Shown one piece after another: positions 18,455 to 50,110 of a stretch of 64,000 bases of DNA. This DNA is from a virus (Duplodnaviria > Caudoviricetes), in the IMG/VR virus record IMGVR_UViG_3300025875_000006, positions 1-64,000 of that record; one strand, written 5' to 3'. The notes below the pieces were generated by a model, which was not told the DNA's origin, ran no database searches, and was given only the letters and a program-made list of their open reading frames with translations. Numbering within the stretch: position 1 is the first letter of the stretch; the number at the start of each line of letters is the position of its first letter. A program made the translations under genes and the position numbers.

Positions 18455-18713
18455 GCTGGTCGTCCACGAAGTCCAGGTAGTGCTCGCGCTCCTCCGGCGG
18501 GTCCACCAGCCAGACGGCGATGCAGGGCTCCCCGATCATGCCCAGGCCCTTGCAGAGCATCGGCGCACCGCCCTGGAGAGTGCCGCGCCGGGTGTCGTCC
18601 GCGCAGCCCTCGATCACGCAGGTGTCCCCGGACGCGGGCGTGCGCGGCTCGGGCGCGGGATCGCGGTTCTCGGCCAGCAGCTGGCTGATGCGCGCGGTCG
18701 GTCCGGCGGTCAT
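18447..18713 (-). CDS. Hypothetical protein
   Basis: GAGGGGAG RBS; begins 20 nt after the CCA end of the tRNA-like RNA. Confidence 0.55.
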   Translation of the reverse strand: MTAGPTARISQLLAENRDPAPEPRTPASGDTCVIEGCADDTRRGTLQGGAPMLCKGLGMIGEPCIAVWLVDPPEEREHYLDFVDDQRG

Positions 18714-18733
18714 CGCGCGCTCCCCTCGTGGCG

Positions 18734-18891
18734 TGGTGGCTGGCAGCAGGGCGGGGAGTCGCACCCCACGTCCCGACGGTGACGGGCGGTTCCCCCGGAG
18801 GGGCAAGCACCGCACCCGGTATCCGGCCGGGCCCGTTTCAGCCGGGCCCGGTCGGCGCAGCCCCGCAGTTGCTGCCTCGCTGCTGCCAGCC
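18734..18891 (-). ncRNA. Oversized tRNA-like RNA, 158 nt, 3' ACCA
   Basis: 12-bp terminal stem plus ACCA, D-like arm, 7-nt-loop arm, long variable arm, T-like arm; promoter TTGAGT-N9-CATACT-N6 puts +1 on the first base of the stem. Confidence 0.75.
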
Positions 18892-18936
18892 GCAGCCAGT
18901 ATGCACGATCTGACTCAACACGCTAGGGGGTTGTCT

Positions 18937-18972
18937 GTTGACACTGTTGAGAAAGCCTGCCAGACTGCTCCC
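18937..18972 (+). promoter_or_regulatory. Tandem-motif leaderless promoter, divergent from the tRNA-like RNA promoter
   Basis: GTTGACA ct GTTGAGA-N8-CAGACT-N6-ATG. Confidence 0.75.
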
Positions 18973-19236
18973 ATGACGCAGACCCGCCCCGTACCCGGCC
19001 AGCCCGTCCACCCGATCAGCCAGCCGGTCCCCTACGCCTCCGACCGCGAGATCGAGCGCGAGGTCGCCCGCATCGCCGAGCTGGGCCAGCATGACCCGGA
19101 GGCCGCGCACGTCGCCGCCGACGAGCTGGTGAAGACCGTGCTGGAGACCATCGCCGGTGGCCACGCCCAGTACGCCTACCTCGCGGTCGCCGCGCTGAAG
19201 GTCTGGGACCTGGACTTCCCCCGCTGGGCCGCCTGA
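18973..19236 (+). CDS. Hypothetical protein (MTQ start), lone + gene in the - arm
   Basis: MTQTRPV; own promoter and terminator. Confidence 0.7.
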   Translation: MTQTRPVPGQPVHPISQPVPYASDREIEREVARIAELGQHDPEAAHVAADELVKTVLETIAGGHAQYAYLAVAALKVWDLDFPRWAA

Positions 19237-49500: not shown

Positions 49501-49889
49501 ATGGCCGACCAGCTGAGCAACAGCGGGCACGACGTCGAGGTGCTGGTGGACTCCGGCATCCCCGGTGCGCCGCCGCTGATCGCCATCGCCATGACCGTCG
49601 GGGACGCTGACCTGGCGCACCAGCAGGCGATGCGCGAGCGGTCGGTGGAGCTGGCCCGGCAGCGCGGGCACCTGCGCTCGTGAGCAGCTGCCAGCCGGTC
49701 GAGGTCACCTGGGCCGAGCCCAGCGCGGACGACATCGACGGCGGGTACTCCGGCTGGTGGCTGCTGGCGCTGTGCCGGGGGTGCCAGCACTACCTGCGGG
49801 TGCGGGTGCACGTGACGGTGGCGCTGGACCCCGATGGGGCCGAGGCGATGGAGCGCGAGGTGCTGGAGCACCTGCACCAGGCTGGTTGA
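46508..49889 (+). other. Run of coupled small hypothetical genes (46508-46735, 46732-47235, 47232-47912, 47896-48159, 48156-48464, 48461-48982, 48982-49227, 49220-49501, 49501-49683, 49680-49889)
   Basis: Overlapping start/stop codons; several Cys/His motifs such as CPHGIGHPDPD; two TM proteins. Confidence 0.6.
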
Positions 49890-49910
49890 CACGCCTGACA
49901 TAGTGGGACC
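49885..49910 (+). promoter_or_regulatory. Promoter of the putative ncRNA
   Basis: TTGACA-N7-CATAGT-N6, +1 = G49911. Confidence 0.65.
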
Positions 49911-50110
49911 GCTCCCCGGGCGAGCGAGCGTTCGTACCCAAGCCCGCGCGGCCCGGACGACGACGAACTGTCCCGGGGAGCCCCCAAGCACTGCGCGAGG
50001 AGGGGCCGCTCTCCACGAGCCAGGGTTGCGCAGCTGGCCAGGCCGGGTCGTCCGCCCTGAAGACCTGAGGGGCCGCCACCGCCGGACAGCGGGAGGCGGC
50101 CCCTTCGTCT
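49911..50110 (+). ncRNA. Putative structured non-coding RNA
   Basis: ORF-free; 10-bp stem starting at +1; further stems; terminator at the end. Confidence 0.55.

Follow-up and report, generated by a model that had tools for sequence, protein, structure and literature searches.

A putative tRNA-shaped accessory small RNA gene in a high-G+C phage distantly resembling actinobacteriophages

Genomic setting of the RNA element

The analyzed stretch of DNA (hereafter the window) comprises the first 64 kb of a phage record from IMG/VR, which is 89.6 kb long, has a CheckV completeness of 100% and contains about 70% G+C. The replication genes of this phage encode a family A DNA polymerase, an SNF2 helicase, a primase-polymerase, a DUF3987 protein and a PD-(D/E)XK nuclease. 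The best GenBank match of the polymerase has 34% identity and all top matches belong to actinobacteriophages, i.e. the likeness to actinophages is distant. No DNA match was found among GenBank phages. ARAGORN reported 0 tRNA genes and 0 tmRNA genes in the whole 89.6-kb genome.

The element lies on the minus strand, within a 259-bp gap separating two divergent small genes, P0001 (minus strand) and P0002 (plus strand; Table 1). In the flanking genes, G+C content at the third codon position is 0.9-1.0, and this signal is lost at about 18720-18970. Because the periodicity vanishes there, the stretch is non-coding; the lengths of the element and its homologues (158, 160, 161 and 135 nt, see below), whose differences are not multiples of three, were also counted for its non-coding nature. 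As for the neighbouring proteins, searches of Pfam and PHROGs yielded no function, P0001 matched no family, no homologue was found for P0003, direct peptide scans of IMG/VR with P0001 and P0002 returned nothing, and the conserved neighbour genes pointed to no partner protein. P0001 has four conserved cysteines and is possibly zinc-binding. Homologue searches with P0001 and P0002 reached loci without the RNA, which could be used as empty sites.

Table 1. Positions of the RNA element, its parts and its surroundings in the window
Feature	Position	Strand	Description
P0001	18447..18713	-	88 aa, ATG at 18713, four Cys; downstream, co-transcribed, outside the RNA module
Spacer with Shine-Dalgarno GAGGGGA for P0001	18714..18733	-	20 nt; absent where the P0001 orthologue is leaderless (L194, L277)
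Whole tRNA-shaped RNA	18734..18891	-	158 nt; fold, covariance model, covariation
Closing stem, 3' strand, and tail	18734..18749	-	nt 143-154, then ACCA at nt 155-158
T-like arm	18751..18769	-	nt 123-141; GUGGGG-UGCGACU-CCCCGC
Variable-arm-like hairpin	18786..18813	-	nt 79-106; GCGGU/ACCGC, inner C-rich CCCC/GGGG hairpin
Anticodon-like arm	18823..18855	-	nt 37-69; 3 + 9 bp, loop GCUGAAA; not conserved
D-like arm	18857..18875	-	nt 17-35; 5-bp GCAGC/GCUGC, 9-nt loop AACUGCGGG
Closing (acceptor-like) stem, 5' strand	18880..18891	-	nt 1-12, 12 bp
Promoter	18892..18919	-	GTTGAGT (18919-18913), 9-nt spacer, CATACT (18903-18898), 6 nt, predicted +1 at 18891
Divergent leaderless promoter and P0002	18937..19236	+	87 aa, ATG at 18973, matches phrog_10733

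Predicted fold

The original prediction described a 12-bp closing stem followed by D-like, anticodon-like, variable and T-like arms, and every one of these helices is present in the sequence. Nucleotides 1-12 (GGCUGGCAGCAG) are perfectly complementary to nucleotides 143-154 (CUGCUGCCAGCC), after which ACCA follows; the 9-bp hairpin of the anticodon-like arm, capped by the loop GCUGAAA, spans nucleotides 41-65. When the terminal helix and the D-like and T-like stems were enforced, the cloverleaf reached -99.9 kcal/mol as compared with a minimum free energy (MFE) of -100.4 kcal/mol, i.e. within 0.5 kcal/mol. The MFE has a z-score of -4.0 relative to dinucleotide shuffles, none of 200 shuffles folding as well. 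Among the homologous RNAs, L097 gave a z-score of -3.1, while L130, with a z-score of -0.9, was not more stable than its shuffles. The proposed class II tRNA-like cloverleaf topology is thus borne out by the constrained fold close to the MFE together with conservation of the core helices.

The T-loop UGCGACU carries U54, C56, G57 and A58, with G at position 55, and the D-like loop bears GGG; both loops are invariant in all four members. As the UGCGA of the T-loop fits the T-loop motif, the RNA would probably form a tRNA-type elbow with the D-like loop.

Homologues and scope of the searches

Three homologues were found, two in IMG/VR phage contigs and one in a soil metagenome contig. These are L097:4045-4204 (160 nt, in the 50-kb IMG/VR contig G001), L036:6455-6589 (135 nt, in the 85-kb contig G006, which is 99% complete and has a gene order like that of our phage) and L130:1404-1564 (in a 1973-nt soil contig sharing the promoter family of our phage). 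There is one copy of the RNA per phage. A covariance model built from three members, with L036 left out of the build, scored 139.8 bits for our phage, 153.2 bits for L130, 120.6 bits for L097 and 84.8 bits for L036.

The T-arm 18-mer first matched phage tmRNA genes (110 bits with RF00023) and also phage tRNAs sharing the unusual T loop. Since it occurs in phage tmRNAs and tRNAs as well, this T arm is a recurrent phage tRNA/tmRNA variant and not the mark of a single family. Many IMG/VR loci, for example L039, L054, L055, L078 and L083, hold phage tRNA genes of ordinary appearance whose T loop is UGCGACU (G for U at position 55). Screening of all 99 T-arm loci with the covariance model gave no further member. 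Scans with patterns of the acceptor strand, of the acceptor plus D-loop and of the promoter produced mostly chance matches, the only informative ones being L097, L130, L036 and L277. The T-arm/3'-strand motif had no host copy in the genomes of 185,579 species, where only chance or unrelated matches were obtained; about 25 matches in Streptomyces were rejected as a coincidence inside a protein-coding gene (VVCDSPDLLP). Likewise, GGCUGA(A/G)A was considered as a motif common with L097 and rejected as a misalignment, the true shared motif being the D-loop CUGCGGG.

Conserved and variable parts

Covariation was examined on a model-based alignment of the four members, using 23 core pairs (closing stem, D-like and T-like arms) and 500 shuffles. 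Standard pairs occupied 94.5% of the cells as compared with 85% in the shuffles, none of which reached the observed value. Seven of the 23 pairs were changed on both sides (1 of 500 shuffles), and the covariation score was 0.341 versus 0.140 in the shuffles (0 of 500). When pairing partners were slid by 1-3 columns, pairing fell to 31-59%. With four members, three of them from one phage group, the statistics are weak, and we regard the result as good support, but not as statistical proof, that the three core helices have been kept by compensatory changes. To this extent, the homologue and covariation check suggested by the original prediction turned out in its favour: all three homologues keep the closing stem, the D-like helix and the T-like helix with compensatory changes.

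As for the individual helices, the terminal helix reads GGCUGGCAGCAG in our phage, GCUGGGCAGCAG in L097 and GGGCGGCAGUGG in L036, each of 12 bp with a matching 3' strand; its outer sequence thus differs among these three, and four of its pairs are changed on both sides. Two members have A-U as the third pair of the D stem and the other two have G-C, and the two basal pairs of the T stem covary (G-C/A-U and U.G/C-G/U-A). The inner helix GGCAG...CUGCC, the junction CGA, the D-loop CUGCGGG and the T arm GGGG-UGCGACU-CCCC are identical in all four members.

The remainder of the molecule is much less uniform. The anticodon-like hairpin with the loop GCUGAAA is found in our phage only; L036 has a 5-bp hairpin ACCGG-GCAA-CCGGU at this place, and L130 and L097 have nothing alignable. 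Because the anticodon-like region is free to vary in this way, the RNA cannot decode. The variable-arm block (U/C)CC-loop-GG(A/G)-AACCG, pairing with CGGU, is kept in our phage as well as in L130 and L036, and L097 lacks it. The tail following the helix is ACCA in our phage and L097, GAUA in L036 and AAC in L130. An encoded CCA end, originally pointed out for this RNA, is therefore not a feature of the family, since ACCA occurs in only two of the four members. What is common to both phage groups is the top half alone, i.e. the terminal helix, the D-like arm and the T-like arm.

Promoter and predicted transcription start

The base G18891 is both the first base of the 12-bp stem and the seventh nucleotide after the -10 hexamer CATACT. 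Searching the genome with the script pattern GTTGA(C/G)N-N7-9-(C/G/T)A(T/G/C)A(C/G)T gave about 20 sites, and in most of them (about 15 leaderless genes) a start codon, ATG or GTG, begins at the seventh base after the -10 element, usually as ATGACGCA. The predicted promoter TTGAGT-N9-CATACT-N6 with +1 on G18891 is hence supported by the geometry of some 15 leaderless promoters of the same genome, from which we infer the transcription start at G18891. The same promoter precedes the RNA in L036, where the predicted +1 again falls on the first base of the stem, and the divergent leaderless promoter upstream of the RNA is arranged there in the same way. A promoter family was also sought in the phage carrying L097 in order to place the start, and no clear one was found; a TAGGCT-N6-G geometry in front of this homologue is only suggestive.

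Some further observations were made on these promoters. The leaderless sites (e.g. 14520, 21231, 23474, 25349, 28522, 42487, 50167, 55991 and 57042) often contain a tandem GTTGACA motif, and four related phages have kept a promoter sub-type GTTGAGT devoid of upstream TTGACA as their RNA/P0001 promoter. A second structured RNA was noticed at 49885-50107 (plus strand) of the window. Its promoter GTTGACA-N7-CATAGT-N6 places the predicted +1 on 49911, where a 10-bp stem (GCUCCCCGGG/CCCGGGGAGC) begins, and CCCCA comes after this stem; a G+C-rich hairpin resembling a terminator closes the unit near 50070-50107, and Rfam has no match to the RNA.

Comparison with empty sites in related phages

At two loci reached by the homologue searches, L194 (a Logan contig) and L277 (in IMG/VR record G005), the same promoter drives a leaderless homologue of P0001, with ATG at +1. 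From its upstream motif to the -10 element, this promoter is identical to that of the RNA element in 20 of 22 positions. A homologue of P0001 with 60% protein identity, P0004, thus occurs without the RNA. When compared with the empty site, our phage is longer by 178 bases, all of which lie precisely between +1 and the ATG, namely the 158-nt element and 20 nt with a Shine-Dalgarno sequence. Through the RNA placed ahead of it, P0001 would accordingly be a leadered gene with a Shine-Dalgarno sequence here.

The presence of the RNA does not follow the relatedness of the phages. G005, which is 100% complete and whose PolA is 71% identical to that of our phage, has no copy of the RNA, whereas G006, less close by its PolA (65% identity), carries one. 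The RNA is also carried by G001, which has no PolA homologue and no GTTGACA-type promoters. From this distribution, optional in one phage group and present in another, it can be concluded that the RNA is an accessory and mobile gene.

The sequences downstream of the RNA vary as well, the following genes being different in all four loci. In L036, the RNA is succeeded by a different gene with no terminator in between; in L130, a G+C-rich hairpin of terminator type and a convergent gene come directly after it. Since this terminator follows directly, the L130 RNA appears to be a separate transcription unit. The original proposal that the RNA is cleaved from a polycistronic transcript would consequently fit our phage and L036, where genes follow, but not L130.

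Comparison with known RNA classes

Searching the 64-kb window against Rfam 15 at gathering thresholds (including YrlA/Y RNA, 6C and 6S) gave 0 matches, and ARAGORN found 0 genes in the window. With the tRNA model RF00005, no match was obtained on 701 nt at E <= 10. At E <= 10, the only sub-threshold Rfam matches were Tymo_tRNA-like (15.6 bits) and sul1 (13.6 bits), and strongly relaxed ARAGORN settings produced only mutually inconsistent calls on both strands. In agreement with the original prediction, the RNA is thus claimed by no canonical tRNA or tmRNA class and by no Rfam family. The exclusion of a permuted YrlA/Y-RNA type by that prediction is likewise borne out, no Rfam Y-RNA match being present, and so is that of a tmRNA (no call by ARAGORN or RF00023, and a length of 158 nt versus about 360 nt).

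The RNA shares with class II tRNAs (e.g. tRNA-Ser) the order of the arms, the long variable arm and, in two members, the 3' end composed of a purine and CCA. It differs in its acceptor (12 bp versus 7 bp), in its linkers of 4 nt and 1 nt and in the G at position 55 of the T-loop. Whereas canonical tRNAs stack a 7-bp acceptor on a 5-bp T stem and have a 2-nt link to the D arm, all members of this family have a 12-bp stem, a 1-nt linker and a T stem of 5-6 bp, with 4-5 nt leading to the D arm. A canonical 7-nt anticodon loop contains U33; in our phage, this position of the loop GCUGAAA is a C, the hairpin of L036 is capped by the tetraloop GCAA, and an equivalent hairpin is missing from L130 and L097. 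RNase P, RNase Z and the CCA-adding enzyme recognise the 12-bp acceptor/T stack of tRNAs. The 12-bp stem and the 5-6-bp T stem, forming a combined stack of 18 bp, exceed this by 5-6 bp; because this stack and the 1-nt and 4-nt linkers depart from tRNA geometry, tRNA enzymes may not accept the RNA.

A particular likeness exists to the tRNA-like domain of tmRNA, as phage-encoded tmRNAs have at their 3' ends almost the same sequence as the T arm GGGG-UGCGACU-CCCC with the GGAC in front of it. Unlike tmRNA, however, the RNA has a real D stem and lacks G3.U70, a tag reading frame and pseudoknots. The equivalent of pair 3-70 is C-G, U-A or G-C among the members, G3.U70 occurring in none of them, and no acceptor identity pair common to the members was found. 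The sole in-frame stop codon would yield an atypical tag, AAPTGPG, and lies within a non-conserved arm. Identity as a tmRNA was rejected, with the acceptor, the size and the detectors all against it. Separately, tRNA-like RNAs of 80-95 nt were noticed in three other high-GC phage contigs, at L003:7860-7945 (minus strand; the same as L005), L013:1990-2080 (minus strand) and L030:6810-6925 (plus strand). They have a 7-bp acceptor with G3.U70, the T arm GCGGGG-UGCGACU-CCCCGC and an ACCA end, with a single central hairpin replacing the D and anticodon arms. ARAGORN and Rfam report nothing for these RNAs, even at E <= 1; they look like stand-alone tRNA-like domains of tmRNA.

The tRNA-like 3' structure of tymoviruses (RF00233) aligns through the T arm GGGGUGC(G/A)ACUCCCC and the ACCA end. 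Its score of 15.6 bits, compared with a gathering threshold of 40, and its E-value of 1.2 are at chance level and reflect the T arm only; the pseudoknotted acceptor of tymoviruses is absent here. A more general parallel is offered by the engineered tRNA scaffold, which likewise keeps the tRNA frame with the decoding region swapped for other hairpins.

The nearest described things are two other phage-encoded small RNAs, RNAC (rnaC, 139 nt) and RNAD (rnaD, 119 nt) of phage T4. These are small stable RNAs with roles still unassigned (PMC3014915, PMC9697503). RNAC has a tRNA-type T arm beside a terminal helix, and large hairpins in place of the decoding part. By its sequence and fold, the present RNA has the RNAC-type features of being phage-encoded and non-decoding and of combining a terminal helix with a T arm. 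In contrast to RNAC and RNAD, which lie in a tRNA gene cluster and have the T loop UUCGAAU, it has the T loop UGCGACU, a 12-bp helix and its own promoter with the predicted start at +1, and its phage contains no tRNA genes. The tRNA gene cluster of T4 is processed from a long precursor. By eye, no sequence similarity between the T4 RNAs and this RNA is apparent.

Alternative explanations

Several other explanations for the element have to be weighed. It could be a cis-acting 5' leader of the leftward operon that protects the transcript from 5'-end-dependent decay by RNase J/E, acts by put-like antitermination or controls translation of the first gene. The helix does start at the first transcribed base, our phage and L036 have no terminator and have a gene with a Shine-Dalgarno sequence 20-30 nt downstream, and CCCCUC at nucleotides 89-94 is complementary to the GAGGGG of the Shine-Dalgarno sequence of P0001 and could pair with it. 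Nevertheless, we consider a leader unlikely: the other members lack the CCCCUC motif, the genes downstream are different at each of the four loci, L130 has a terminator and a convergent gene directly after the RNA, and orthologues of P0001 do well as leaderless genes in the absence of the RNA. Moreover, a mere stabiliser would not need the sequences of the T-loop and D-loop that are kept across unrelated phages. Alternatively, the RNA might be a natural tRNA scaffold, whose frame provides processing or stability and whose variable central hairpins are the effector; in one variant of this explanation, the C-rich loop of the variable arm would make the molecule a small RNA of the antisense or anti-SD-like type, with a parallel in the 6C RNA of actinobacteria. 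A central domain that varies within a kept frame would be expected from this, and the C-rich hairpin block is indeed conserved in the three close relatives. Yet the distant L097 has only the frame in common with them, with GNRA-capped hairpins and no C-rich loop, and no target was identified, so that the scaffold appears to us a rather unlikely solution.

Two explanations that dispense with a functional RNA are far less probable than these. An element acting at the DNA level (a mini-transposon with 12-bp terminal inverted repeats, a phage attachment site derived from a host tRNA or tmRNA gene's 3' end, or an operator pair) would account for the perfect 12-bp inverted repeats, for the filled site here as compared with the empty site in relatives and for the resemblance of the T arm and the preceding GGAC to tmRNA 3' ends. 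We regard it as highly improbable, as the internal helices covary as RNA pairs including G.U, the start coincides with the promoter-predicted transcription start in two phages, each genome contains one copy with no target-site duplication seen at the flanks, and no attB-like host copy of the T-arm/3'-strand motif was present among the 185,579 species' genomes. Equally improbable is a tRNA or tmRNA gene in decay that no longer has a function. The tRNA-like topology of the element, escaping every detector, would be compatible with such decay, but its helices are maintained by compensatory changes, the same T and D loops recur in phages without a common polymerase, and the placement of its own promoter is conserved.

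Proposed role of the RNA

Our tentative preference, held with confidence a little short of even, is for an accessory gene of the phage whose product, a small RNA of about 135-160 nt, is stand-alone, tRNA-shaped and non-decoding and most likely acts in trans via its top half. The model assumes that host RNA polymerase would start at the first base of the 12-bp terminal helix. Since this predicted start is also the first helix base, no 5' trimming would be needed and the 5' end would be buried in the helix. The RNA would then fold as a class-II-tRNA-like cloverleaf, the conserved top half of which likely makes a tRNA-type elbow. Because the top half is the sole part kept across both phage groups, the function is expected to reside there, and some protein of the host or the phage that recognises tRNA shape may bind the RNA as a stable, tRNA-shaped ligand or decoy. 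Owing to the 18-bp stack and the extra linker bases, the RNA would presumably not be handled like a normal tRNA. In our phage and L036, it would be the first part of an operon transcript, being either separated from the downstream mRNA or coexisting with it. In this model, we infer the transcription start, the elbow, the 3' end, the action in trans and the partner.

The role of a tRNA mimic had been illustrated in the original prediction by several examples, and those which need the anticodon-like loop (a decoy for anticodon nucleases, action at the A site or on RelA, or a T-box specifier) are contradicted by the replacement of this arm in L036 and by its unalignable counterparts in L130 and L097. 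A decoy role in a more general sense may still apply. One special form of it, which we find doubtful, is that of a mobile anti-defence decoy: the tRNA-shaped RNA, made from an early promoter, would block an actinobacterial effector that recognises the tRNA acceptor end or elbow, and, owing to its over-long helix, would be poorly accepted by the normal tRNA enzymes. Candidate targets of such a decoy are nucleotidyltransferase toxins of the MenT/AbiE type and other tRNA-directed nucleases. If true, this would represent an RNA-only counter-defence spreading between unrelated actinophages.

The element offers a clean experimental case, as only one gene is involved, its promoter is defined and its exact 5' end can be predicted, and the sister genomes with and without the RNA provide natural controls. 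As far as can be judged from the predicted start, promoters of the leaderless type may be able to set RNA 5' ends without RNase P. If the conserved core is a decoy or ligand of a host tRNA-binding factor, the RNA would reveal an RNA-based way in which actinophages handle host translation or immunity; if it is not, the element would still constitute a new structured RNA family for the databases.
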